DNA of 38,541 bases from Allosphingosinicella sp. (GTDB taxonomy: Bacteria > Pseudomonadota > Alphaproteobacteria > Sphingomonadales > Sphingomonadaceae). A model generated the notes under the pieces. It had not been told where the DNA came from. It saw only the letters and a list, made by a program, of their open reading frames with translations, and ran no database searches. Positions 9,120 to 24,292 of the stretch are shown here, piece after piece (within the stretch, counting starts at the first letter, position 1; each line of letters opens with the position of its first letter). The translations under genes and the position numbers were made by a program. Location: positions 1 to 38,541 of the forward strand of contig JAYRLF010000003.1 in NCBI GenBank assembly GCA_041905385.1, in the 5' to 3' direction.

Positions 9120-9165
9120 TGGCTGGGGCGGCAGGATTCGAACCTGCGAATGCCGGTACCAAAAA
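9120..9165 (-). tRNA. 3' half of tRNA-Gln(TTG); att site at the island boundary, not an intact tRNA
   Basis: Reverse complement TTTTTGGTACCGGCATTCGCAGGTTCGAATCCTGCCGCCCCAGCCA has the anticodon loop, T-arm (GGTTCGAATCC), acceptor 3' strand and CCA. No D-arm or 5' acceptor strand upstream. Confidence 0.88.
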
Positions 9166-9256
9166 TCTGGTGCCGCTTTGCCAGCCTAACCGAAACCCAT
9201 GGGAATCCATGGGCTTAACCATCGTAGAATCTGCTGAAATCGGGTCAAGTGAAAAA

Positions 9257-9280
9257 TAGGACACAAATTAGGACACAAAT
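9257..9280. repeat. Perfect 12-bp tandem repeat TAGGACACAAAT x2; probable integrase arm-type sites
   Basis: Copies at 9257-9268 and 9269-9280, about 90 bp inside the att core. Confidence 0.65.
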
Positions 9281-9908: not shown

Positions 9909-10553
9909 ATGGGCCGATTGCCAAGCATTTTCGGGCCGAGCGCAGAATTACCCGCCTCTCCGTTGGGAGGCCGCCAACCGGGCCAGCCGGCATCGAAGCA
10001 ACTTGCCTTGTCGATCCCCAAACAGGAGCAGAACAATTGGTGCTGGGCTGCGGTCGCGGCCGGCATAGGGGCATTTTACAACGGCCAGGCTGAGGCCCAA
10101 TGCGGCCTGGCCACCAAGGTGCTCGGCAAGTCACCGGACAACAAATGCTGCACCACCTCTCGCGGCGGTGAATGCGATCATCCATTCTATCTCGATTCAG
10201 CCCTGCAGGCGGTCGGCTGCTTCGTCGACCTCGACTACACCCTTCCCTTCCAGAAGGTGAGCGAGGAGATCGACCAGGACAGAACCTTGGGGATCCGCGT
10301 CGAATGGCCCAACGGAAGCGGCCATTTCGTCGCGGTCGGAGGCTGGCGGCGCAGCCCAAGCGCCGAGGAATATGTGACCGTGCACGATCCTTGGGAACCG
10401 CGCGTCGAAGAGGTTCGCCTTTCGGCGCTTCACGGCTCCTATGGCACCGACCGCGGAAGGTGGACCCACAGCTACCTCACCGCGAAGTCGCCGCCGGCCC
10501 GTCCAGCCTCGGGTCGTCACCTTCCGAGTCCAAGCCGGCGGAAGGGAGGCTGA
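9909..10553 (+). CDS. Papain-like cysteine protease (C39-like/AvrRpt2-C70-like)
   Basis: QEQNNWCWAA (oxyanion Gln and catalytic Cys), SGHFVAVGG (His), VTVHDPW (Asp). No signal peptide. Start at 9909 or 9897. Confidence 0.85.
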   Translation: MGRLPSIFGPSAELPASPLGGRQPGQPASKQLALSIPKQEQNNWCWAAVAAGIGAFYNGQAEAQCGLATKVLGKSPDNKCCTTSRGGECDHPFYLDSALQAVGCFVDLDYTLPFQKVSEEIDQDRTLGIRVEWPNGSGHFVAVGGWRRSPSAEEYVTVHDPWEPRVEEVRLSALHGSYGTDRGRWTHSYLTAKSPPARPASGRHLPSPSRRKGG

Positions 10554-10554
10554 G

Positions 10555-11163
10555 ATGAGTATCGTTCGCAGGACGCCTCCAGCGCACGTCGCGGCTCTGA
10601 TCCGAACGGGACTGATCGACATTTCGGCCGGCAAGGCCCGCATGCTCGGCGGGGCGATGCCGATCGAACTGACCGAGGCTCTGCCGCTCTACGGAGTCGA
10701 CACCGATCATCTGTTGCGGGGCCAGGGCACAGCTGCGCTGGTGCAGGTCGGCTGGCGCAGCATCGTAACCGATGACAAGGGCCAGCGGCTGTTCGCCGAC
10801 GTGGACGGCGTCGACAGTGACGCGCAATTTGCGCGGGTGGCCGCCGGCCCTGCCATCGGGCGGCTGATCGAGCGGGCCGAGCTTTCCGAGCGGGAACTGG
10901 CGGGCGGAGAAGCCGAACTCGAACTCAGGCTGTTCGAATCTCCCCAGTTGAAGATTGCCGCGCTCTGGCTTGCCGGCCCCACCACCTGGTTCCTTCCGTA
11001 TTCCGGGTCGAATACGAAAATACTGAGCGAAGACGCCTTCCTCGAGCTTCTGACCGAACGGGCGCGCGAGCGTCGCGCAAAGTTTTCCGACGAGCCGATC
11101 GACCTTGGCCGCTGGCGTGCGCGCCCGGAGGAAAGTGAGGAAGGCGAGTCGATCGAAAACTAG
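10555..11163 (+). CDS. Hypothetical soluble protein, protease partner
   Basis: ATG 1 nt after the protease stop, GGAGG RBS; motifs VGWRSIV and LRLFESPQLKIAALWL. Confidence 0.8.
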   Translation: MSIVRRTPPAHVAALIRTGLIDISAGKARMLGGAMPIELTEALPLYGVDTDHLLRGQGTAALVQVGWRSIVTDDKGQRLFADVDGVDSDAQFARVAAGPAIGRLIERAELSERELAGGEAELELRLFESPQLKIAALWLAGPTTWFLPYSGSNTKILSEDAFLELLTERARERRAKFSDEPIDLGRWRARPEESEEGESIEN

Positions 11164-11185
11164 CGAACCTTCCGGGGAGGGCGAC

Positions 11186-11668
11186 ATGTCGATCACGAGA
11201 GTCACGAGGGACTGGACATTCCGCAAGGCAGGACTCGGAGGCGCGAACAATCAGCAGGCGCTCGAGCAACTCACGCGCCACGTGCCGGTCGAAGCCATCG
11301 CCTTGTTCGTTGCGACGATGTCGATCGCGACGGCCCTGCTCCCGCAGCCCGCGGACTCGGCCTGGCGCCACATCACGCTCTGGCATGTCTATGGAGCATT
11401 TGTGACCGTCGTCACGCCGGCACTGGTGATCGGGCTGGCGCTGCGGAGCCATTCGCTGCTGCCGGCCCGACAGCCGGGTGAACCGGCGGTAGCGTTCAGC
11501 TTTCCGACGACCCCCTTGATACTGGCCGTCGTCGCCTTCGCGGCATGGGGGCTCTCCGTCCCGGGCCTCGTCACCACGGACAACGGCAAGATCCTTGCGC
11601 CATTCGCCGCGTCCGCGGTGTCAGTGTTTCTCTCCATCATCGAGCCGATCCTGCGGAGGTATCTATGA
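11186..11668 (+). CDS. Hypothetical membrane protein, about four TM segments
   Basis: GGGAGG RBS; hydrophobic segments follow LTRHVPVEAIALF. Confidence 0.8.
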   Translation: MSITRVTRDWTFRKAGLGGANNQQALEQLTRHVPVEAIALFVATMSIATALLPQPADSAWRHITLWHVYGAFVTVVTPALVIGLALRSHSLLPARQPGEPAVAFSFPTTPLILAVVAFAAWGLSVPGLVTTDNGKILAPFAASAVSVFLSIIEPILRRYL

Positions 11669-13149
11669 CCAGAAAAATCGCCGCCTCTGTCCTGTTGACG
11701 GCCGCTGCCCTCGCACTCGGTGGCTGCGTCTCGCTCGGGGTCGCCAACCGAGATCAGCTGGATCCGGGCAGTGCCGCGAGCCGGACCGGCGTGGAATATC
11801 GCCTCGGCTTCACCCAGATGACAGGTACGGTGACCTGGCGGCTGGTCGACTGCCAGACTCCGACAATCGCGGTAAAGACCGAAGGCGTAACGGTAGGCAG
11901 CGCGGCCGACCCGGAGCGGCGGTACGTGATCGACATGACCAGCCTGTCCAGCCCGTTGAAAACCTCGGCGCTGAGGGTCGAGCGCTGGCCCAATGGTCAA
12001 CTGCGCGCGATCAACGCTTCGGCCGAAGATCGATCCGCCGCCGTGCTCGGCAGCCTTATTTCCTCGGCAGTCCGCATCTTCTCGCCGGTTCCGGGGGGCG
12101 GCGGCCCGGCCGCCGCAAGTCACTGCACTCCCGATACCGAACGCGCGCTCGCCGACGCGCAACGGCTGAAGGGGGAACTCGCGACCAAGACGGCGGCCGT
12201 CAATGCGGCGACCGCGGATCTCAATGCTATCACGGAACGGGTGAGACAAGCCGGCGGCGCCGTCGATTCGCTCACCGCTAATCTGCTCGCCAATGCGGTC
12301 ACAGCGCTGGACCAGCGTCGCCGGGAGCAATTGGTACTGCAGACCCAGCTCGATCGCGCGCTCGAGAAAATCACCGCAAAGATCGAGTTCCGCTGGCCGC
12401 AGCGGGCGTCGGACAGTGGCCCCCATTTTCTCGAACTCCCTGCCGAGACGGCAAGCGAGTGGTTCACCAACGGGCCGGCGACGGCGCGAATTCGCAGCGG
12501 CAGCTGCGTGCAGCTTTGGCTGAGCCGGGCAAGCGGCGGCGGAGCCGGCGCCGTCGACGCGCCGGACGAAAGCATTCTCGAAGGCATTCGCTACCGCGAT
12601 CCCGAACCCGGGCTGTTCGAGGTTCGGGTAACCAAGGATGCGCAGGTGCCCCCAGCCGGCGGGCCGCCTTGCTTGGCGAGTCCCGGCAGCGAAACCGTGC
12701 TCAGCATGCCCGTCGACGTGCTCCAGTTCGGCCGCGTAATGACGCTGCCGTTCCACAACGCGATGTTCCAGAGCAACGCGCTTGAAGCCACCTGGGACGA
12801 ACAAGGCCGACTGACGATGGCAAGCTATGGCGTGCGCACGTCCAGCGCGGAGACGGCTGCGGCGCTGCTGTCGACGGGCGTGGACCAGGTCCGGGCCGGC
12901 ATTGCCGCGAACCGCGATGCGGAAACCCAGCGCCTGGTGCGCGAGAATGCGCTGCTCCAGGCGCAAATCGCCAACGCCGAACTCCAAGGCAAGCTGAACC
13001 CGCCGGTCCTCGACGAACGCTCGCAGGCGATTGCCAACTTCGACGCCCAGCGCGCCCTCGACAATGCGGAGGCCGCTGCAATCAACGCGCAGATCGCATT
13101 GCAGCGCGCACGGGCGGAGGCTGCCGCTGCCGGGATAGCGGTAAATTAG
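11665..13149 (+). CDS. Hypothetical lipoprotein with coiled-coil segments
   Basis: GGAGG RBS and ATGA overlap; lipobox ALGG-C; Ala/Gln-rich helical segments in the middle and at the C-terminus. Confidence 0.82.
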   Translation: MTRKIAASVLLTAAALALGGCVSLGVANRDQLDPGSAASRTGVEYRLGFTQMTGTVTWRLVDCQTPTIAVKTEGVTVGSAADPERRYVIDMTSLSSPLKTSALRVERWPNGQLRAINASAEDRSAAVLGSLISSAVRIFSPVPGGGGPAAASHCTPDTERALADAQRLKGELATKTAAVNAATADLNAITERVRQAGGAVDSLTANLLANAVTALDQRRREQLVLQTQLDRALEKITAKIEFRWPQRASDSGPHFLELPAETASEWFTNGPATARIRSGSCVQLWLSRASGGGAGAVDAPDESILEGIRYRDPEPGLFEVRVTKDAQVPPAGGPPCLASPGSETVLSMPVDVLQFGRVMTLPFHNAMFQSNALEATWDEQGRLTMASYGVRTSSAETAAALLSTGVDQVRAGIAANRDAETQRLVRENALLQAQIANAELQGKLNPPVLDERSQAIANFDAQRALDNAEAAAINAQIALQRARAEAAAAGIAVN

Positions 13150-13449: not shown

Positions 13450-14796
13450 TTGGACAGCAGCGAGATCTTCTGGCGATGGCTAACGGGCCTGGTTCGACGG
13501 GTATCGGTTGGCGTCCTCCTCTACTTTCTGTTCGCGATGGTTTCGGTCCTGCTGTATCTGTCAGAAGGCGAGCGGAATTCCGGCCTGGATGAATTAAGTC
13601 GCTATTCGAACGAGCATACGAGATACACCGAGGCCTTTGCCGACATAGCGCGCTACATGACAGCGCTCGGGAGCTCCAAATCGACAGCCCGGATCGCCAT
13701 CCAGCCACTGCGCCTCAGTCTGATGAGCGACCAGATACCCGGGCTTCCCGAATTCGCCTGTGCGGGGAGCTGGGTCGAGGGACTTCGGCGCCTTCAGTCG
13801 ATTCCGGCGGATCTCGCAGCGCGCTGCGCTCGCTCCGAGGAGCAATGCCAGGTCACCCGAGAGAGGCTCCTCCTTGATGATCTGGTGGCATTCGAGCGTG
13901 GCATCGCCTCCGTGCAGGACGCAGTCCAGGTGATGGACCGTTATTGCAACCGACGCGATGCCTACGAATCGATCTGCGGCTATTATCTCAGCGAAGGCAA
14001 TGAGATAGCGGCACTGAACTCGTTCGTTGGCTCTTATTATCGTGAGCGGCCCAGCAGGCCGGCAGGGGGATCGGAGCAAGGGCTGATATGCGATGCCGAT
14101 CGCGCGTCGCTGACCGGCGCGGCTCGGCTGGTCGCGGAGATCGATCCGACCGCTCGGCCGCGAACGCTCGCCGATTTCGAGCGGCTCGGGCGCACGGTCT
14201 CGGATGCGCGGGTGGCGATCCAGTCGCAGGACACCAGGATGAGCGGCGCGCCACCTGGAGGCATTATGACCGTCTCGATCCCCAAACAGGCGGGTCTTCC
14301 GACACTCGCCCTGTTCGGCCTGCTGGCCGCGCTCTATGCCATCCTCCAGATCCGCCGGCTGAAGCGCCTTGTCCTCTCTTACCGGCCGACCGAGGGAGAT
14401 GACATCTTCCGCCTCTACCCAGTCGCCTCGAGCGCGTTCACGATACCGGTTTTCGGTGGGGCTGGCGGCGCGCCAGGTGACGGAAACGGGACGCACCTCG
14501 CCGCGGTGCTGAACAATTGGCTGTTCGACCATATCCCGCTGCTCGCCTGGGCCCTGATGGTCTTCTCCATCGGCGGGCTGACCTATGTCCGCTGGAATGG
14601 CGGTACCCAGCTGTCCTTGGTCGGCATTGGCCTCGCTTGGCTATTCCTGATCCTGCAAGCCGCCGTCATCGTCGGCTTCTACTGCGAGCAGAGGGCCGTG
14701 CGCGCCCATTTCATCGACCGGATCGGCGATGCGCCGGCGGCCGAGCTTCATGGAAATCCGAAGGCAAAGGAGAGCGAAGATGCTGAAAGGTCTTAG
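13450..14796 (+). CDS. Hypothetical membrane protein with a large Cys-containing extracytoplasmic domain
   Basis: TTG start after GGGGGGAA; one N-terminal TM, about 240-aa loop with six Cys, three C-terminal TMs; overlaps the next gene. Confidence 0.72.
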   Translation: MDSSEIFWRWLTGLVRRVSVGVLLYFLFAMVSVLLYLSEGERNSGLDELSRYSNEHTRYTEAFADIARYMTALGSSKSTARIAIQPLRLSLMSDQIPGLPEFACAGSWVEGLRRLQSIPADLAARCARSEEQCQVTRERLLLDDLVAFERGIASVQDAVQVMDRYCNRRDAYESICGYYLSEGNEIAALNSFVGSYYRERPSRPAGGSEQGLICDADRASLTGAARLVAEIDPTARPRTLADFERLGRTVSDARVAIQSQDTRMSGAPPGGIMTVSIPKQAGLPTLALFGLLAALYAILQIRRLKRLVLSYRPTEGDDIFRLYPVASSAFTIPVFGGAGGAPGDGNGTHLAAVLNNWLFDHIPLLAWALMVFSIGGLTYVRWNGGTQLSLVGIGLAWLFLILQAAVIVGFYCEQRAVRAHFIDRIGDAPAAELHGNPKAKESEDAERS

Positions 14797-16225
14797 GTCC
14801 CAGACATTGTGCCGCACCATCGCGGTGGCTCTCTTGGTCGCCGCGCTCGCCGGGTGCGGCGGCACCGGCGACGAGACGACCACCGACCTGGTCGTCTGGC
14901 AGACGGAAACCGACCCAGCCGCCAAGGAGGCATTGGAGCAGCTGGCCACGTCATTCGAACGTTCGAATCCCGGGGTCGACGTGACGATTGAGTCCGTCCC
15001 CTGGGGCTCGCTGTCGGAACGGCTCGCCGCGGCTATTCGGAACAACGATCCGCCGGACATTGCGCACCTCCAGCCTTTCATGACCTACGGCTTGGTCGAG
15101 CAGGGCCAATTGAGCCCGATCGACGATGTCATCCGGGAACTCGAGGCCACGCACGGACCGATCCTGCCGGCGGTTCGCGATCTGCAGCTGTTCGATGGCC
15201 GTCGCTATGGCCTTGCTTATGCGGTCGGCGTCACCGGATGGACCTTCGACACCCGCAAGGCGGGAGGATTGGCGCTGCCTTACCCGCAGGACAGTGCCGG
15301 CACGATCACGGAAGACGCGTTGTTCAACTATCTGCGCCAGGTCCGGGCGCGCAATCGGCAAGCTACAGTCCTCCTTCCGGGCGGCACGCCATTCTTCATG
15401 GAGCAGCTGTTCGGTGAGCTCGTCGCCAATGCCGGCGGCCGGCTCTATGATCCCGCGACACGGCAGTTCCTTTTCACGAGCGAACCCGCCCGGCGCGCGC
15501 TACGCTTCTTCGTACGGCTCCGCCAAGCGGGGCTGGTCACCGCGGATTGGCAGGGTCAGCAATATGTCGACCAGTTCGGCAGGCTGGCCTCACCAGGCAG
15601 CGTCTTCCTCACTCCAGTCACCTATGCGCGGGCAAGCGTCGCAATCGAGCGCACCCTCGGCGACAACCGGCAGGAAGCGAACAGCAACGTCTTTCGATTC
15701 ATGTCGCCGCCGACCAACCAGCGCAACGGCCAGCCGGTCGCAACAATCGACGCCGAACCCTTCGTCATTTTCCAGCATACCGACCGGGAGCCAGCGCCGC
15801 GTGGGCAAACCAAGCGACAGCTGGCCGCCGCATTCCTGCGAGCCTTCTATGCCCGTGACAATTATCTCCGTTTCGTAAGGGCCGTGCCGATCCATCTGAC
15901 GCCCGTCTTCGAGCGGCTTGCCGAGGACGCCGCCTATACCCGCTGGATCCATGAAGGCTGGCTGGACTGGCATCGCCACACGCTCGCCTTCCTCCGCGAT
16001 CCCAACCTGACGCGTCCAATCCTGGTTCCGGGCCCGAATGCCTCGACGCTCGCGCAGGATCTGCGCAATCCCTATTTGCTGCAGCTACAGGCGCAGGGCG
16101 TCATCGCCCGCGCGGTGACTCAGGCGATGGAGCCGAATGCCGACGTGGATGCGATCCTCGCCAATGCGCAAGCTGCGGCGACGCGCATCGTGGAGCAACC
16201 GATTCAGCCGGCCGCCAGCCGCTGA
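14780..16225 (+). CDS. ABC transporter substrate-binding lipoprotein (carbohydrate/CUT1-like)
   Basis: AAGGAG RBS, lipobox LAG-C, FERSNPGVDVTIESVPW, AAIRNNDPPDIA, GQLSPIDD, DGRRYGL. Confidence 0.85.
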   Translation: MLKGLRSQTLCRTIAVALLVAALAGCGGTGDETTTDLVVWQTETDPAAKEALEQLATSFERSNPGVDVTIESVPWGSLSERLAAAIRNNDPPDIAHLQPFMTYGLVEQGQLSPIDDVIRELEATHGPILPAVRDLQLFDGRRYGLAYAVGVTGWTFDTRKAGGLALPYPQDSAGTITEDALFNYLRQVRARNRQATVLLPGGTPFFMEQLFGELVANAGGRLYDPATRQFLFTSEPARRALRFFVRLRQAGLVTADWQGQQYVDQFGRLASPGSVFLTPVTYARASVAIERTLGDNRQEANSNVFRFMSPPTNQRNGQPVATIDAEPFVIFQHTDREPAPRGQTKRQLAAAFLRAFYARDNYLRFVRAVPIHLTPVFERLAEDAAYTRWIHEGWLDWHRHTLAFLRDPNLTRPILVPGPNASTLAQDLRNPYLLQLQAQGVIARAVTQAMEPNADVDAILANAQAAATRIVEQPIQPAASR

Positions 16226-16230
16226 TTGCG

Positions 16231-17031
16231 ATGTCGGCGCGACTTCTTCTCGGCATTCAGATTGCACTGCTGGCGGGCTCGCTGGTGCTCGTCCTGCAGC
16301 TGTTGATAACCGGCCTTCCGTCTGGGTGGTCAGGCGAGAATTGGCTGCTGGCGGCGCCATTTGTCGCAAGGTCGCTGATCTACGCGTTCGTCACAGCCGC
16401 CACGCAAGTGGCGGTCGGGCTGGCGGCGGCGCTAACCATTCTCTGGCTGACGCAGGGACGACGCGCCCAATTGATACTGATCACGATCTTCCTGCTGCCC
16501 TATGCCGTGCCCGCGACGGTGATCGGGCTCGTATTTCGCTTCGGCCTCGGCGCGGAAAGCGCCTGGGCGGAAGCGGTAAGCCCGATATTCGGAGTGCCAA
16601 CGACCTACTGGCTCACCGAGCATGCCTTCGAGGCCTCCATCCTGGCCAGCATCTGGCAGTTCTTTCCGTTCGCCTTCCTGCTTTGCTTCCTCGCCCTCAA
16701 ATCGCTCGATCCGCAGATGCTGCGGGCGGCGCAGTCGGATGGTGCACCGTTCCGGGCGATGCTTTCACACATCATTCTCGCACGAATCTGGCCGATCCTC
16801 GTGGGCGTGTTCACCCTTCGACTGCTGTTCATGCTGGTCAAGTTCGACACGCCCTACGTCTTCACCGAGCTGATCAACTCGCTCGATGATACGGCAACGG
16901 TCGAACTGAGGCGGGCCGTGGTCGGCTCGAACAGTCCGGAACTCGGACTGATCGGCTGGTCGCTGCAGCTTTGCGCGTTGGTCGTGGCAGTCGCCCATGT
17001 CTTCCTCCAGCGCCGGACGCGAAACGGCTGA
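16231..17031 (+). CDS. ABC transporter permease (MalF-like, divergent)
   Basis: LLPYAVPATVIG, IWQFFPFAFL, degenerate EAA loop LRAAQSDGA. Confidence 0.82.
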   Translation: MSARLLLGIQIALLAGSLVLVLQLLITGLPSGWSGENWLLAAPFVARSLIYAFVTAATQVAVGLAAALTILWLTQGRRAQLILITIFLLPYAVPATVIGLVFRFGLGAESAWAEAVSPIFGVPTTYWLTEHAFEASILASIWQFFPFAFLLCFLALKSLDPQMLRAAQSDGAPFRAMLSHIILARIWPILVGVFTLRLLFMLVKFDTPYVFTELINSLDDTATVELRRAVVGSNSPELGLIGWSLQLCALVVAVAHVFLQRRTRNG

Positions 17032-17840
17032 TGGGACGGATCCTGCCAGCCCTTCTCGCTGCTTTGCTTGCCGGCTTCGCGCTGCTGCCCATTGCAATGC
17101 TTCTCCTGGCATCCGGACTTCCGCAATTGTCCGTTCGCCCGTCCGGAATCCCCTGGGATTCCTTTTCCGCCTGGCGGGGTCCAAGACTGTCTCTGCTCTG
17201 GGCCGAGTCCAATGCGGGCCTGCTCCAGTCGCTGCTTCGCACGACCTTGCTCGCGCTCGCCGCGTCGGTCACCGCCGCCTCCTTGTCCCTGGTCAGCGCC
17301 TATCTGATCACCCGGCGACGCTCCCGGCTGTTTCGGCAGGGCGTGCAAGCGCTTTCCCTCGCTGCCTATGGGCTTCCCAGCGTCTTCCTGTTCCTCGCCG
17401 TGGCGCCGCTGCTCACGGGTTCGCCCTTTCCGGCGTTGACGAAGGTCTGGATCATGCACACGCTCTATATCCTGCCGATGACGCTTGTCCTGGCGCTCGG
17501 CTATGCTGCGGCGCATCCCTTCCTGCTCGACCGAAGCGTCGCGATGGACGGCGCGCGATGGCCAAGTCGCTTCACCTTTGCCTACCGCGCGAAGCTTTGG
17601 CGGGCCCATCTCGCGCTCATATCGATTGGCATGTTGATCTCCTGGGGCGATCTCGTCTTCTCCCAGCAGATGCTGGCGGCCGACTCGAAGCTGCTTGCGG
17701 ATCTGTTCGACCTGCGCTTCTTCAACAATGATTCGACATTTCCGGACTATCCGAGCGCGGCGCTGTTCAGCCTGGTGCTGATGCTGATCGCAACTTGCCT
17801 CGCGTCCGTCATCGCCCTCACCAACCGGCGCGGCGCATGA
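17031..17840 (+). CDS. ABC transporter permease (MalG-like, divergent)
   Basis: TGATG coupling; about six TMs; degenerate EAA loop DRSVAMDGA; ISWGDLVFS. Confidence 0.8.
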   Translation: MGRILPALLAALLAGFALLPIAMLLLASGLPQLSVRPSGIPWDSFSAWRGPRLSLLWAESNAGLLQSLLRTTLLALAASVTAASLSLVSAYLITRRRSRLFRQGVQALSLAAYGLPSVFLFLAVAPLLTGSPFPALTKVWIMHTLYILPMTLVLALGYAAAHPFLLDRSVAMDGARWPSRFTFAYRAKLWRAHLALISIGMLISWGDLVFSQQMLAADSKLLADLFDLRFFNNDSTFPDYPSAALFSLVLMLIATCLASVIALTNRRGA

Positions 17841-18703
17841 CCGAGCGCATGCCCATCCTCGCCATGGCTGACGTCACGATCACGCGATCCAATGGCGAGC
17901 CATTGATCCGCAACCTCGACCTCTCGCTCGGCGCAGGCGACATCCTCGCCATCGTCGGTAAGTCGGGAATTGGAAAGTCCTCGGTCCTCAACGTGATCGC
18001 CGGCTTCATCATGCACCGGGAGCGCGGCCGGAGATCGCCGTGGCAATGGTTCGATGGCGACCGGGCCCTGCAATATTCCGGATCGGTCCATGTCGGTGGG
18101 ATCGAGATCGACTCCCTGCCGCCGGAGAAAAGGCGCGCTATCGCGATGGTGATGCAGGGTGGCGTCGTCTACGAGCACCTTTCCGTCCTTCAGAATGTCG
18201 CCTTCCCACTCCGCACGACCGGCAATCGCAACGCGCGCGACCTTCGCGCGCAGGCGGCGCGACTGCTGGCCGAGGTGGAGCTCACGCGCGACGGCGAGAC
18301 GGTGGAGCACATGTTCGAGGACAAGGCCGGTCAATTGTCGGCGGGACAGAGGCAGCGGCTTGCGCTGGCGCGGGCCATGGCCAAGGACCCGGACGTCTAT
18401 CTTCTGGACGAGGCCTTCGCCAATCTCGATCCACTCCTGCGACGGGAATTGTACGAGCGGTTCACGACCCTCATCATCGGCCAGCCTCGCTGCGCCGCCG
18501 TCGTAACGCACGATCTTTCGGACGTCAGCCGCGCGAGCTGCGTCCTCCTGCTCGGTCCTGCCATTGAAGGGTCGGGCCACTGGCTGTACCGAAGAGATGA
18601 CGACAACGCCCTCTTGCTTGAAAAGGGACGGGGCGGTGACTCAGGCTATTGGCAGAAATGGCATGCTGAAATTACCGGCGCGGCCGCGGCTGCTCATTGC
18701 TGA
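17837..18703 (+). CDS. ABC transporter ATP-binding protein
   Basis: Walker A GKSGIGKS, signature LSAGQRQR, Walker B LLDEAFANLD, VTHD. Confidence 0.9.
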   Translation: MTERMPILAMADVTITRSNGEPLIRNLDLSLGAGDILAIVGKSGIGKSSVLNVIAGFIMHRERGRRSPWQWFDGDRALQYSGSVHVGGIEIDSLPPEKRRAIAMVMQGGVVYEHLSVLQNVAFPLRTTGNRNARDLRAQAARLLAEVELTRDGETVEHMFEDKAGQLSAGQRQRLALARAMAKDPDVYLLDEAFANLDPLLRRELYERFTTLIIGQPRCAAVVTHDLSDVSRASCVLLLGPAIEGSGHWLYRRDDDNALLLEKGRGGDSGYWQKWHAEITGAAAAAHC

Positions 18704-19454
18704 TCCGACCGGCGGGGTCGCTCCGGTTCGCGACATTGCACCCGCCTCGGTGCTCCGACGGCTTTACCGGCGCCTGCGCCCCATTCCGCGATCGCCTGTG
18801 CCGCGCTCGGCAGACGTCGCGCACATGCTTCAACTGGTCCCGCAGGAGGCGCTCACCGAGCGTTTCGCATGGGCGTTGGAATTTCTTCAAAGGAAGCTGG
18901 GGACAGATCTCGGCAGCTATCTGGAATTCGGTGTCTACAACGGGAGCTCGATGCTCTGCCTGCTCGAGGCGCTGCGCCTGGCCGGCGACCCGCCGATGCG
19001 TCTCTACGGCTTCGATTCCTTCCAGGGCCTGCCGCCAGCCGCGGTCCATGACGACGGCGGCGTCTGGCAAGCTGGTCAATTCTCCTGCCCGCGACACTTT
19101 GCCGAGAAACGTATCTCGAGCGCACGCAACCATGGCCATCCGGTCGAGCTGATCGAGGGATGGTATGCCGACACATTGTCGCATGGCGACATCTACGGGA
19201 TCGGAAGCGCTTCTCTCGTCATGATCGACTCGGACACCTACAGTTCGGCGCAGCTTGCCCTCGCTTTCTCGGCGGGCCTGCTGACAAATCCGGCGATAAT
19301 CATGTTCGACGATTGGCGGCTGAACGATCTGGATGTGAAATCGCTTGGCGAATATCGCGCTTTCAAGGAATGGGTCGGGCAATATCCGGAAATTCGCGTC
19401 GAGAATGTCCGTTCCTACAACCGCAAGTCGGTCACGCTCATCCTGCGTTCCTGA
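18663..19454 (+). CDS. TylF/MycF/NovP-family O-methyltransferase
   Basis: YLEFGVYNGSS, GFDSFQGLP, LIEGWYADTL, MIDSDTYSS, IMFDDW, GEYRAF. Start uncertain (18663 or about 18825). Confidence 0.85.
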   Translation: MLKLPARPRLLIADPTGGVAPVRDIAPASVLRRLYRRLRPIPRSPVPRSADVAHMLQLVPQEALTERFAWALEFLQRKLGTDLGSYLEFGVYNGSSMLCLLEALRLAGDPPMRLYGFDSFQGLPPAAVHDDGGVWQAGQFSCPRHFAEKRISSARNHGHPVELIEGWYADTLSHGDIYGIGSASLVMIDSDTYSSAQLALAFSAGLLTNPAIIMFDDWRLNDLDVKSLGEYRAFKEWVGQYPEIRVENVRSYNRKSVTLILRS

Positions 19455-20878: not shown

Positions 20879-20898
20879 GCGACAGATTCTGACGCCTT
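20879..20898. promoter_or_regulatory. Putative WYL-regulator operator GCGAC-AGATTCT-GACGC
   Basis: Near-perfect palindrome of CGAC-N7-GTCG (DriD-type) geometry in the divergent promoter; a close copy lies at 24308-24325. Confidence 0.65.
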
Positions 20899-20956
20899 GT
20901 CGGTGCAGGATGCGAATCGCCGGCGATCGGGACGGCGCGAACTTGGGGGACTGGAA

Positions 20957-23900
20957 ATGCGACTGGTCGAAGGCACGCTCAGATTGTCCGCTTCGGACCT
21001 GATGCGCTTCAAGGTCTGCCGGCATGCGACCGCGCTCGATCTGCGCAAGGCCGAGATCGGGGACATCATTCCGGGCGCCGACAGCGAGGAGGCCGAACTG
21101 CTCCAGCGTCAGGGCGACGCGCATGAGGCGGCCTATCTCCAGTCGCTGAGGGACAAGGGCCTGACAATCGTCGAGATCCCGAAGGACGCGATCTCGCTCG
21201 AGCAATCCGCCGCCATGACCATCGAGGCGCTGCATAAGGGTGCCGACGTTATCTTTCAGGGCGCGTTCCTTTCGGGCGCCTGGGGCGGCTATTCGGACTT
21301 TCTCGAGCGCGTCGATCGGCCGTCGGCGCTGGGCGACTGGTCCTATGAGGTCATCGACACCAAGCTGAAGCGCTCGCCGGACCCCAAGCACGTCCTCCAG
21401 CTGGCGCTCTATTCCGACCTGCTCGCCGAGATCCAGGGCCGGCCCCCCGACCAGGCCCATCTCCAGCTTGGCGACGGCAGCCGCTATTCGATCCGGCTGC
21501 GCGACGTCGCCGCTTATTGCCGGCACGCGCGCGCGAAGTTCGAGGCCTTTCTCGACGAACGACCCCTGACGCGGCCCGAGCCGGTCTCGGGCTGCGGGCT
21601 CTGCCCGTGGCGCGAACGCTGCCAGGCCGAATGGGAGGCCGCGGACAGCCTGGTCCTCGTCGCCGGGATCAGCCGCAGCCAGCGCGAGAAGATCGAGGCT
21701 GCCGGCATCGCGACCATGACTGCCCTCGGCGCCCATGCGGATCGCGTGCCAAGGCTTGCGCCCGAGACCCAGAGGAAGCTGCAAGTACAGGCGCGCCTCC
21801 AGGCGGCACGCCGCGCCGGCGGCCCGCCAAGCTTCGAGCTTCGCGCCGCCGAGCCGGGCCGCGGCTTCGACCTGCTGCCCGAGCCCGACGATGGCGACGT
21901 CTTCTACGACATCGAGGGCGACCCCTATCATCCCGGCGGGCTCGAATATCTGCACGGTCTCTGGCTGCACGAGGGCGGCGCGTGGACATTCCAGCCTTAT
22001 TGGGCCCATGACCGCGCAGCGGAAGGCGAGGCCGTCGCGCGACTGCTCGGCTTCCTCTCCGCGCGGATGCGCGCCTTCCCGCGCGCCCATATCTATCATT
22101 ACGCAAATTACGAGATCGCCGCGCTCCGGCGCCTGACCGCGGCCCATTCCACCAGCGAGCTGGCGCTGGACCAGCTGCTGCGCGAGCAGAGGTTCGTCGA
22201 CCTGTTCAAGGTCGTCTCCGGGGGCCTCATCGCGTCGGAGGCCGGCTATTCGATCAAGGACCTCGAAGCCTTCTACATGGCCAAGCGCGAGGGCGATGTG
22301 GCGACCGCCGGCGCCAGCGTCGTCGTCTATGAGAAATGGCGGCAAAGCGGCGATCCGGACCTGCTCGGCCAGATCGAGGCTTATAACCGGACCGACTGTA
22401 TCTCGACCCAGCTCCTGCGCGACTGGCTGGTTGCCAAGGCGCGGCCGTCCACTTTGCCCTGGCCGATACTCGGCGAGGACCACCGGCCGACCGGTGCGAC
22501 CCGGCTCAGCGACGAAGAGGCCGAGATGGCGGCGCGCCACGCCCAGTTCGCGCCGGCACGGGCGCGCCTGGGCGACGCCGTCGGCGACCTTCTCTTCCAG
22601 CTCAACTATTTCCACGCGCGCGAGGACAAGCCTTATTATTGGGGCATCTTCGATCGGCTCGCCCAGGAGAGCGAGGCCCTGCTCGACGACCTCGAATGCA
22701 TCGCCGGGCTCGAGGCGATCGGGGCTGCCGTTCCCGACAAGCAGTCGACCGAGCGCCAGTACCGCTTTCCGCCGCAGGAAACCAAGATGCGCGCCGGTCC
22801 GCGCCAGCGGCCCTGCATCAAGCCGGCAGGCAAGCCGGAATCCGTCGGCCTGGTCGCGCTCGACATGGAAGCCTGCATCCTGACCTTGCGCCGCGGAAAG
22901 AAAGCGGGCGAGCTCCCGGACCGGCTCGACCTGCTGCCGTCACAGCCATTGCCGACGACCAAGATCCGCGAGGCGATCATGGCCGTCTCGGATGGGATCA
23001 TTGCCGACAATGGCGCCCACCGGGCGGTCGAACATCTGCTGCTCCGGACGCCGCCGACATTCACCGGAGGGCCGCGCCCGCTCGGCATCGTCGATGCCGA
23101 TGCCGACCTCGTGCTCGAGACGAGCAAGGCGATCGCGGCGATGGACGGGACCGTGCTGCCGATCCAGGGGCCGCCCGGGACGGGCAAGACCTATGTCAGC
23201 GCGTGGTCGATCATGGATCTCGTCCGCGCCGGCAAGCGCGTCGCCGTCGCCTCGCACAGCCACAAGGCAATCGACAATCTGCTCAAGGCCGTCGCCGACC
23301 GCGCAACCGAGCTCGGCGATCAGCCGATGATCGTCCACAAGGGCGGCGAGGAGGATGAAGGAGGCGCCACCAGCCATCCCTTGATCGGCATCATCGACGA
23401 CAATGAGGCGCCCGAGATCGGCATGGCCGACGTGGTCGGCGGCACCGTCTTCCTGTTCGCACGGATCGCCGAGCCGATCTTCGACTATCTGTTCGTCGAC
23501 GAGGCCGGCCAGGTCTCGCTCGCCAATCTGGTCGCCATGTCGCGCATCGCACGCAACATCGTCCTCGTCGGCGATCCGATGCAGCTGCCCCAGCCGACCC
23601 AGGCCAGCCATCCCGGCCAGAGCGGCCAGTCGGCGCTCGAATATCTGATCGGCGATCATCGCGTCGTGCCGGCCGATCGCGGCATCTTCATGCCGGTCAG
23701 CCGCAGGATGCACTGCGGCGTCTGCGGCTTCATCTCGGCCGCGGTCTATGAGGACCAGCTCACCAATGACGCGCTCGCAAGAGGCCAGCGGCTCGACGGT
23801 GCCGACGGCACTTCCCTGCTCGGCGCGCGGCTGAATGCGACCCCCCATGCAGGGCGATCGCAGATCTGCCCGGAAGAGATCGCGGCGATCCAGGCGTTCC

Positions 23901-24292
23901 TCGATATGCTGCTTGGCGCCGCCTATCTCGATCGCAAAGGCCGGACCCGCGCGATCGGCCGCGGCGATATCCTCGTCGTCGCCCCCTACAATGCCCAGGT
24001 CAACGCGCTCCGCTCCGCCTTGCCGGGGGTCCGGGTCGGCACGGTCGACAAGTTCCAGGGACAGGAAGCGCCGATCTGCCTGGTCTCGATGACCACATCG
24101 AGCGCCGAGGAAATGCCGCGCGATCTCGATTTCCTGTTCTCGCTCAATCGCATCAATGTCGCCCTCTCGCGCGCCCAGGCCATGGCGGCGGTGTTCGCGA
24201 GCCCGCTGCTGCTCGAGGTCCCCTGTCGCACGGTCGACGACATGATGCTCGTCAACACGCTGTGCCGCCTCCACGAGCATGGCGGCGGCTGA
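20957..24292 (+). CDS. TM0106-family RecB/Cas4-like nuclease + RNase H-like domain + SF1 (DNA2/NAM7-like) helicase
   Basis: LSASDL..F..CRH, YSDFL..YEVIDTK, QLALY, CGLCPWRERC; FYDIEG/YHYANYE/YNRTDC; GPPGTGKT, DEAGQ, GDPMQL, APYNAQ, GTVDKFQGQE, NRINVALSRA. Confidence 0.92.
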   Translation: MRLVEGTLRLSASDLMRFKVCRHATALDLRKAEIGDIIPGADSEEAELLQRQGDAHEAAYLQSLRDKGLTIVEIPKDAISLEQSAAMTIEALHKGADVIFQGAFLSGAWGGYSDFLERVDRPSALGDWSYEVIDTKLKRSPDPKHVLQLALYSDLLAEIQGRPPDQAHLQLGDGSRYSIRLRDVAAYCRHARAKFEAFLDERPLTRPEPVSGCGLCPWRERCQAEWEAADSLVLVAGISRSQREKIEAAGIATMTALGAHADRVPRLAPETQRKLQVQARLQAARRAGGPPSFELRAAEPGRGFDLLPEPDDGDVFYDIEGDPYHPGGLEYLHGLWLHEGGAWTFQPYWAHDRAAEGEAVARLLGFLSARMRAFPRAHIYHYANYEIAALRRLTAAHSTSELALDQLLREQRFVDLFKVVSGGLIASEAGYSIKDLEAFYMAKREGDVATAGASVVVYEKWRQSGDPDLLGQIEAYNRTDCISTQLLRDWLVAKARPSTLPWPILGEDHRPTGATRLSDEEAEMAARHAQFAPARARLGDAVGDLLFQLNYFHAREDKPYYWGIFDRLAQESEALLDDLECIAGLEAIGAAVPDKQSTERQYRFPPQETKMRAGPRQRPCIKPAGKPESVGLVALDMEACILTLRRGKKAGELPDRLDLLPSQPLPTTKIREAIMAVSDGIIADNGAHRAVEHLLLRTPPTFTGGPRPLGIVDADADLVLETSKAIAAMDGTVLPIQGPPGTGKTYVSAWSIMDLVRAGKRVAVASHSHKAIDNLLKAVADRATELGDQPMIVHKGGEEDEGGATSHPLIGIIDDNEAPEIGMADVVGGTVFLFARIAEPIFDYLFVDEAGQVSLANLVAMSRIARNIVLVGDPMQLPQPTQASHPGQSGQSALEYLIGDHRVVPADRGIFMPVSRRMHCGVCGFISAAVYEDQLTNDALARGQRLDGADGTSLLGARLNATPHAGRSQICPEEIAAIQAFLDMLLGAAYLDRKGRTRAIGRGDILVVAPYNAQVNALRSALPGVRVGTVDKFQGQEAPICLVSMTTSSAEEMPRDLDFLFSLNRINVALSRAQAMAAVFASPLLLEVPCRTVDDMMLVNTLCRLHEHGGG

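Follow-up and report, generated by a model that had tools for sequence, protein, structure and literature searches.

A 38,541-nt stretch of the Allosphingosinicella sp. genome (positions 1–38,541 of the forward strand of contig JAYRLF010000003.1, assembly GCA_041905385.1; hereafter the window) carries a cassette of four genes that starts with those for a papain-fold cysteine protease and for its partner protein. These two genes form a conserved module that occurs, split or fused, in several bacterial phyla, belongs to Pfam family C70 and bears a Gly-Gly (GG) signature on its own subunits. The fourth gene represents a previously undescribed family of lipoproteins encoded beside proteases of six classes. 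The reading of the whole that we favour, with a confidence somewhat short of even, is that of a latent GG-specific protease switching an effector in the cell envelope. A preliminary description, drawn from the sequence alone, had proposed a protease-gated membrane system made up of all four genes.

A conserved protease–partner module

Gene 1 matches Peptidase_C70 (PF12385) with 26.2 bits, above the gathering cut-off of 19 (E-value 8.6e-6), and, together with its Cys-His-Asp triad, this assigns it to C70. The triad, previously read as intact, proved so throughout the family: C45, H139 and D160 as well as Q39 are invariant in 79 relatives. The extra cysteines pointed out at the time are likewise retained, C65 being invariant and C80, C81 and C89 at least 90% conserved in the same set. 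Nor does gene 1 have a hydrophobic N-terminus or signal peptide, in agreement with the preliminary description, and a hydrophobic N-terminal stretch was present in only one of 102 related proteases. Matches of gene 1 to SAKe proteins were rejected as repeat artefacts.

A genome scan returned 314 protease relatives; the best 80 were fetched and, with five loci from the genus, gave a set of 85 loci. These best 80 of 314 are distributed over environmental phyla, and the phyla of the module include Pseudomonadota, Bacteroidota, Actinomycetota and Acidobacteriota, among others. Databases name the module's proteins only "papain-like cysteine protease family protein" and "hypothetical protein". In the viral contigs searched for the protease, there was one weak match.

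A profile derived from gene 2 matched 81 of the 85 protease loci. In a wider set, the partner was found at 94 of 102 C70-type protease loci (a lower bound, as two loci scored negative had partner matches in other searches), and 47 of these 94 modules are fusions with the partner at the C-terminal side. The co-occurrence and fusion of genes 1 and 2, suggested earlier as a check, thus amount to a near-obligate linkage. The notion of a conserved four-gene system fared worse: within the 85 loci, the four genes occur together and in the same order in only one other genome, a gammaproteobacterium of the Lysobacterales (L014), whose proteins share 36–47% identity with those of the window. When the 1100 genes neighbouring 81 of the loci were clustered, no further gene proved to be shared beyond close kin. 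The conserved unit is therefore genes 1 and 2, not all four.

Might this unit be a self-contained toxin–immunity or housekeeping protease pair, with genes 3 and 4 as passengers of mobile-element cargo? Most modules indeed stand alone, the arrangement of a protease with one of various N-terminal domains and then the partner is reminiscent of toxin–immunity layouts, and the families of genes 3 and 4 also occur without C70. Such an origin would sit poorly with the same four-gene order in the gammaproteobacterial genome at the divergence given above, with C70–lipoprotein pairing at three places on the protease tree and with a fusion rate that is unusual for an immunity protein, so that we consider it quite unlikely.

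Several relatives have features of their own. At their N-termini, four proteases (L019:5197–6486, L020:164–1690, L023:5500–6471 and L126:7247–8746) have BTRD1 (polyglycine hydrolase-like) repeats, a peptidoglycan-binding domain or repeats of another kind, none with a signal peptide; some of these repeats have what we take to be a lectin-like look. A distant C70 protease at L010:3770–7224, for which no partner was detected, lies beside a Cys-rich precursor peptide and genes that are presumably YcaO/ThiF-like, and this locus is likely a cluster for a ribosomally synthesised and post-translationally modified peptide. On a Burkholderia plasmid (L099:6807–9147), a protease–partner pair on the margin of a type VI secretion system locus adjoins a further lipoprotein, whose linker reads VGGGG.

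Predicted folds and the Gly-Gly signature

An AlphaFold2 model was obtained for a fused relative (L028; predicted local distance difference test, pLDDT, 86.6), and a model was also made of the gene 2 product (pLDDT 88.1). The best fold match of the catalytic domain, determined on the fused relative rather than on gene 1 and supported by Foldseek, is staphopain (Z 17.0, root-mean-square deviation [rmsd] 2.6, 156 residues aligned). Prostaphopain B (Z 14.5), C39 double-glycine proteases (Z 13.5–13.9), phytochelatin synthase 2btw (Z 12.8) and AvrRpt2 (Z 10.8) follow. For the gene 2 model, two matches tied for the top at Z 5.5, namely YpmB and residues 41–191 of prostaphopain B, i.e. its prodomain (rmsd 5.3, 124 residues aligned). 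Taken alone, the partner's score may reflect just a common arrangement; what lends it weight is that each half of the module, independently of the other, points to the same zymogen. In prostaphopain B, the prodomain blocks the active site.

The predicted complex of protease and partner scored 0.88, compared with 0.01 for the best control; the mark applied is reached by 116 of 157 solved pairs and 2 of 215 mismatched pairs. Runs agreed in at least 78% of contacts with a partner pLDDT of at least 81, and the interface comprises ~200 contacts. On the protease it involves residues 4–15, 42–43, 91–92, 133–139, 162–170 and 211–214, and on the partner residues 28, 30–32 and 91–100, with the MLG residues in contact, which is predicted to position the partner over the cleft side of the enzyme. 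Such a score supports binding only as a prediction, and the halves of split genes tend to pass tests of this kind; with this qualification, we regard it as highly probable that the two products form a complex. The modelling advised in the preliminary description hence agrees with its proposal of a separately encoded prodomain or inhibitor, for which the 47 fusions and the weak match to the prostaphopain prodomain also speak. That the partner is inhibitory appears reasonably probable.

Modules of this type end in a common motif. Gly-[Gly/Ala/Ser]-stop closes 73 of 94 modules, including 44 of 47 fusions, compared with 23 of 958 other genes of the same loci, and 63 of the modules additionally have Asp or Glu shortly upstream. 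The motif is carried mostly by the partner or the fusion and is present in several phyla on a quick tree. Across the 73 motif ends, the penultimate Gly is invariant and the last residue small; the residue before that Gly varies, with Met in 35, Lys in 9, Thr in 9 and Leu in 8 of the 73. In seven split modules, the window copy among them, the motif instead terminates a protease tail of 21–28 residues and the partner is devoid of it. A strict rule placing GG on either protease or partner fits these seven tailed proteases, and was rejected as a rule (overall p 0.14). For partners and fusions, an origin of the terminal GG as a mere ribosome-binding-site artefact was also rejected: 55 of 66 such ends have neither a coupled gene nor a Shine–Dalgarno-like sequence, and Gly is encoded there by each of its four codons.

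A second GG lies in a loop of the partner. Among 150 representative partners, the loop that follows helix 1 could be aligned in 136, of which 71 contain GG, compared with 32.1 ± 4.3 in shuffles (0 of 2000 reached 71) and 91 of 1028 other windows. Leu precedes this GG in 31 cases, and Ala, Gly or Ser follows it in 61. Loop GG and C-terminal GG coexist in 13 of 18 partners. The N-terminal tether of the protease also carries GG in six of nine split proteases with a GG-type C-terminus, as opposed to 3 of 38 other split proteases.

Among PDB sequences, the protease profile best matched a double-Gly protease, 6mpz (E-value 0.0042), whose substrates end in Gly-Gly, Gly-Ala or Gly-Ser according to the available text of PMC6363468. 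We consider it likely that the enzyme of the module is double-glycine-specific, its cleavage motif being predicted from the module's own sequences. A GG specificity had been suspected before from one short tail in gene 3; the family-wide motif makes a far stronger case than was known then.

The same termini could alternatively serve a transpeptidase that cuts between a hydrophobic-Gly pair and a C-terminal Gly, Ala or Ser, frees this last residue and transfers the tail-bearing protein to an amine such as that of the lipoprotein or peptidoglycan. The invariant penultimate Gly with its small last residue would suit this chemistry, as would the absence of an E1-like gene among recurrent neighbours. 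In the available text of PMC7863939, staphopain binds the IGTS of staphostatin as P2–P2′, i.e. with hydrophobic-Gly before the cut, and phytochelatin synthase, from the same fold group, removes a C-terminal Gly in that of PMC10318531. Yet the variation in the residue before the Gly suits P3 more than P2, the motif in the loop of the partner is most simply read as a cleavage site, and the fused model leaves the tail unstructured; we regard a transpeptidase as very unlikely.

The lipoprotein, the membrane protein and a possible envelope switch

Gene 4 encodes a lipoprotein with the lipobox LGGC (Cys21). Two related repeats (hhalign 91.8%) flank a likely coiled-coil hairpin, as judged from the sequence and weak PDB matches. 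On the plasmids searched, there was no match to gene 4. Its profile matched 21 of 156 genomes of the genus, where 18 loci with E <1e-10 were kept and four weak ones dropped. Thirteen of the 18 have a protease beside the lipoprotein (C70, S8, trypsin-like, C1 or M6). As four of the 18 are C70-plus-partner neighbours that themselves seeded the profile, we also counted without them: at 9 of 14 loci, an S8, trypsin-like, C1 or M6 protease is encoded no more than two genes away, one of these proteases scoring below its Pfam cut-off. At baseline, 18 of 2993 genes of the host genome have such a neighbour, which is an underestimate (seven proteases found with 15 queries and one profile). A class-wide sample contained a protease beside the lipoprotein at two of five loci (a sixth, weak match was dropped), and metagenome loci did so in four of four cases, two apparently being the same cassette.

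Overall, the family occurs beside six protease classes (C70, S8, trypsin, C1, M6 and astacin-like), with signal peptides on many of these neighbours, and the C70 pairing falls on long branches of the protease tree. A likeness of gene 4 to DUF4831 is our own presumption, as is one of a second family to CsgG, neither having Pfam support. This second, unnamed secreted family (alignment A9) lies beside C70 at seven loci of the genus, and in most cases GG immediately precedes a hydrophobic helix; one more member (L211) has no C70 and adjoins a trypsin. A relationship between gene 4 and A9 was rejected (hhalign 0.7%).

The gene 3 product has four hydrophobic segments (peaks near residues 33, 68, 101–111 and 134) and, as first noted in the preliminary description, KAGLGG in its N-terminal tail. 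Its family comprises 43 relatives including itself. The five closest members, all LGG-tailed, are probably one clade, and the two of them with available genomic context are both C70-linked. Searches that covered 400 genomes from the order, 155 from the genus and 300 from the order to which L014 belongs yielded six distant matches, all without a C70 gene within 1.5 kb, one closer match (L240) and one further weak match. On these results, gene 3 is accessory. The protease-gated membrane effector proposed earlier accordingly survives in altered form: the lipoprotein, with at least six protease classes beside it, is the better-supported effector candidate, and the four-transmembrane (TM) protein recedes to an accessory.

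Two observations concern small membrane proteins. An unnamed two-TM family at four loci (L097:7598–7981, L132:4386–4757, L182:2234–2656 and L130:7589–8179), a possible holin-like partner, is encoded next to signal-less proteases (three C70, one S8) and exported neighbours; small TM genes by signal-less proteases hint at a conduit role. Moreover, a partner relative (P0063) and a gene 3 relative (P0015) both derive from 1291-base contigs, a candidate third linkage of partner and TM protein.

According to the favoured reading, the partner would clamp the active site as a separately made prodomain, with GG motifs on the module's own subunits serving as a substrate-like latch; the C-terminal GG could also act as a product-like plug. 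Once released from the partner, the protease would cleave the TM protein behind the Gly-Gly of its tail, this protein perhaps giving the signal-less enzyme a route across the inner membrane, and would then act on the lipoprotein and so activate an envelope effector. Whether the lipoprotein is the target is, to us, an evenly balanced question, and cleavage of the TM tail is slightly less probable than that. A bolder version is doubtful and offered tentatively: gene 4 proteins as undescribed lipid-anchored exported effectors switched on by interchangeable proteases, genes 1 and 2 as a split, reversed staphopain-type zymogen latched (or acting as a ligase) via its C-terminal GG, and the four-TM protein as a GG-gated conduit. 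If true, the gene 4 family would be an envelope-side counterpart of gasdermin logic.

A number of results weigh against the favoured reading. Compartments conflict, since 101 of 102 proteases lack a hydrophobic N-terminus while the lipoprotein is exported. The partner's prodomain match is middling and shared with YpmB, Foldseek with the partner model returned nothing at E 0.001, and the last four residues of the L028 fusion fall below pLDDT 50, so that docking of the tail is conjectural. In the window copy and six relatives, the terminal GG/GA codons of the protease overlap the partner's ribosome-binding site, and the window protease ends in RRKGG, where the motif's Asp and its hydrophobic residue are both missing. 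The idea that a GG linker in the lipoprotein tracks C70 was not supported (GG after the first helix in 4 of 6 C70-linked members vs. 5 of 16 others). Only two genomes, the window's host and L014, have all four genes, and most modules lack a conserved third gene, so their targets would lie elsewhere. As for the TM protein, LGG tails are found in the five closest relatives vs. 3 of 38 others, i.e. most of the family is without one; a closer match in the genus (L240) has no protease within 7.8 kb; and other signal-less protease–lipoprotein pairs (L127, L134, L183 and L191) have no small TM gene. Finally, our counts take in many related genomes and therefore overstate independence.

The main rival casts the lipoprotein as a dock or export aid for the adjacent protease and the partner as a folding chaperone or permanent second subunit, the cassette thereby placing an active protease at the cell surface. 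Pairing of one lipoprotein family with six protease classes of unlike specificity, many with signal peptides, is in line with this, as are the large interface, four conserved extra cysteines that fit an oxidising compartment, relatives with peptidoglycan-binding or BTRD1 domains and the lack of a defence-island signal. It is nevertheless difficult to imagine a single dock for unrelated folds, an export signal is missing from the protease, and neither the conserved free G[GAS] C-terminus nor the loop GG located where the partner is predicted to meet the active site would be explained; we deem the dock rather unlikely.

Should the lipoprotein prove to be a cleavage-activated effector, as in the reading of a latent protease, protease-gated effector systems would reach the periplasm and outer membrane, for which we found none described in the literature. 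A staphopain-like prodomain in the partner would extend this fold well beyond staphylococci, and the cross-phylum protease module now has a testable identity. In titles and abstracts (subscription papers and supplements being outside this scope), neither the module with its partner and GG signature nor the family of gene 4 was found to be described. C70 is treated only as plant-pathogen peptidases in the available text of PMC10318531.

Genomic setting and comparison with known systems

The cassette (Table 1) is cargo of an integrative conjugative element. On its outer side, ~730 nt separate its start from the 3′ part of a transfer RNA (tRNA) gene for Gln, and a trb type IV secretion cluster follows at 25–37 kb of the window. 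An intact copy of the tRNA gene is present on another contig (C43), followed by an integrase-like open reading frame (ORF). The AGGACACAAAT repeats near the attachment (att) end are likely integrase arm-type sites. ORFs and the tRNA-Gln match confirm the earlier picture of four tightly coupled genes, the first cargo inside the att end, with spacings of 1, 22 and −4 nt. GC content at third codon positions across the four ORFs is 0.73–0.82. Promoter and terminator signals showed no excess over shuffles. Genes 2–4 had no match in Pfam, PHROGs or PADLOC and two weak ones far below cut-offs in NCBIfam, and neither these nor PDB sequence searches gave their families a name.

Table 1 Features of the cassette, its integration end and A9 family members (coordinates in the window unless prefixed by a locus)
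Feature	Coordinates	Strand	Remark
Gene 1	9909–10553	+	214 aa; papain-fold cysteine protease (Pfam C70)
Gene 2	10555–11163	+	202 aa; prodomain-like partner domain
Gene 3	11186–11668	+	160 aa; four-TM protein
Gene 4	11665–13149	+	494 aa; lipoprotein
LGG in protease N-terminal tether, residues 19–21	9963–9971	+	candidate self-processing site
Protease C-terminal Gly-Gly-stop	10545–10553	+	codons double as gene 2's ribosome-binding site (GGAGG)
Partner LGG loop, residues 31–33	10645–10653	+	candidate bait/latch over active site; residues 28, 30–32 at predicted interface
Gene 3 N-terminal tail LGG	11234–11242	+	KAGLGG is residues 14–19
PGGGG linker in gene 4	12091–12105	+	Gly at residues 144–147
att end: 3′ part of tRNA-Gln(TTG)	9120–9174	-	64-nt match, 93.75%, to intact tRNA-Gln on contig C43
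Two AGGACACAAAT repeats	9258–9280	not assigned	identical repeats at C43 end
A9 members	L128:7455–8792, L129:7623–9065, L130:8176–9693, L133:1534–3186, L009:7625–8905, L011:5323–6753, L198:5429–6904	not assigned	beside C70 proteases

Downstream, a 448-residue protein with about four hydrophobic segments and no family match (13450–14796) overlaps the start of an ATP-binding cassette (ABC) solute-binding gene; this fifth ORF was not found at the 85 related loci searched. Further cargo comprises ABC transporter genes (solute-binding, permease and ATPase) and a TylF-like O-methyltransferase (14729–19454). At 20897–24292 lies a fusion of a RecB-like nuclease of the TM0106 family with a superfamily 1 helicase, which has partial matches to Mokosh models and is a possible defence gene on the same element. 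In the same genus, a further C70–partner–lipoprotein–TM cassette (L132:2635–7467) adjoins tRNA-Gln(TTG) and an integrase.

Residence on an integrative element would suit anti-phage abortive infection, that is, the favoured reading with a phage trigger: a phage cue would free the protease, which would open a membrane pore and kill the cell. Effectors paired with swapped protease classes are also the pattern reported for defence modules in the available text of PMC12642450. Such a role, raised in the preliminary description, found no support in PADLOC, which matched none of the four genes, or in the neighbourhoods: among 119 neighbours scanned from 23 related loci, clear defence genes came up at just two (Shedu at L183, type I restriction–modification at L235), besides a Fic-type hit at L011 and four hits to domains judged generic. 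With no sensor domain in evidence and many of the lipoprotein family's partner proteases secreted, phage defence is a minority reading that we hold unlikely.

Protease–effector defence modules (gasdermin, Pepco, EACC1 and MBL; PMC12642450) link one effector family to interchangeable proteases, as the lipoprotein family does here, and are latent systems opened by cleavage, as may be the case here. The available main text describes their effectors not as lipoproteins, uses neither "papain" nor "lipoprotein", and has their proteases fused to sensors.

Characterised C70 members (AvrRpt2, EvpQ and RumIc1) are injected effectors or a membrane-anchored immunity peptidase, with no such partner described in the available text of PMC7991086 and of the preprint on RumC1. 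The module passes PF12385 and has the triad; in the fold comparison, AvrRpt2 is among the lower matches. Staphopains (MEROPS C47; 1x9y, 8oig) provide the best catalytic fold match and, with a weak score, the joint-best match of the partner. They are secreted pre-pro-enzymes whose prodomain comes first, and differ in domain order, which in the module is reversed or split with the catalytic domain first, in the module's lack of a signal peptide and in sequence (10–13% identity); gene 1 has no Pfam C47 match and the module no staphostatin. We know of no GG motifs in staphopains. These motifs recall the C39 peptidases of peptidase-containing ABC transporters (PCAT; LahT 6mpz, ComA and PCAT1), which share a similar fold, the best profile match and the G-[GAS] pattern at termini. 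Unlike these, the module has an obligate partner domain and bears the motif on its own subunits, with no ABC transporter fusion in the long forms and recurrent neighbours scanned and no precursor peptides seen. The module of genes 1 and 2 is hence a Pfam C70 member, neither staphopain nor PCAT peptidase, that appears to work like both.

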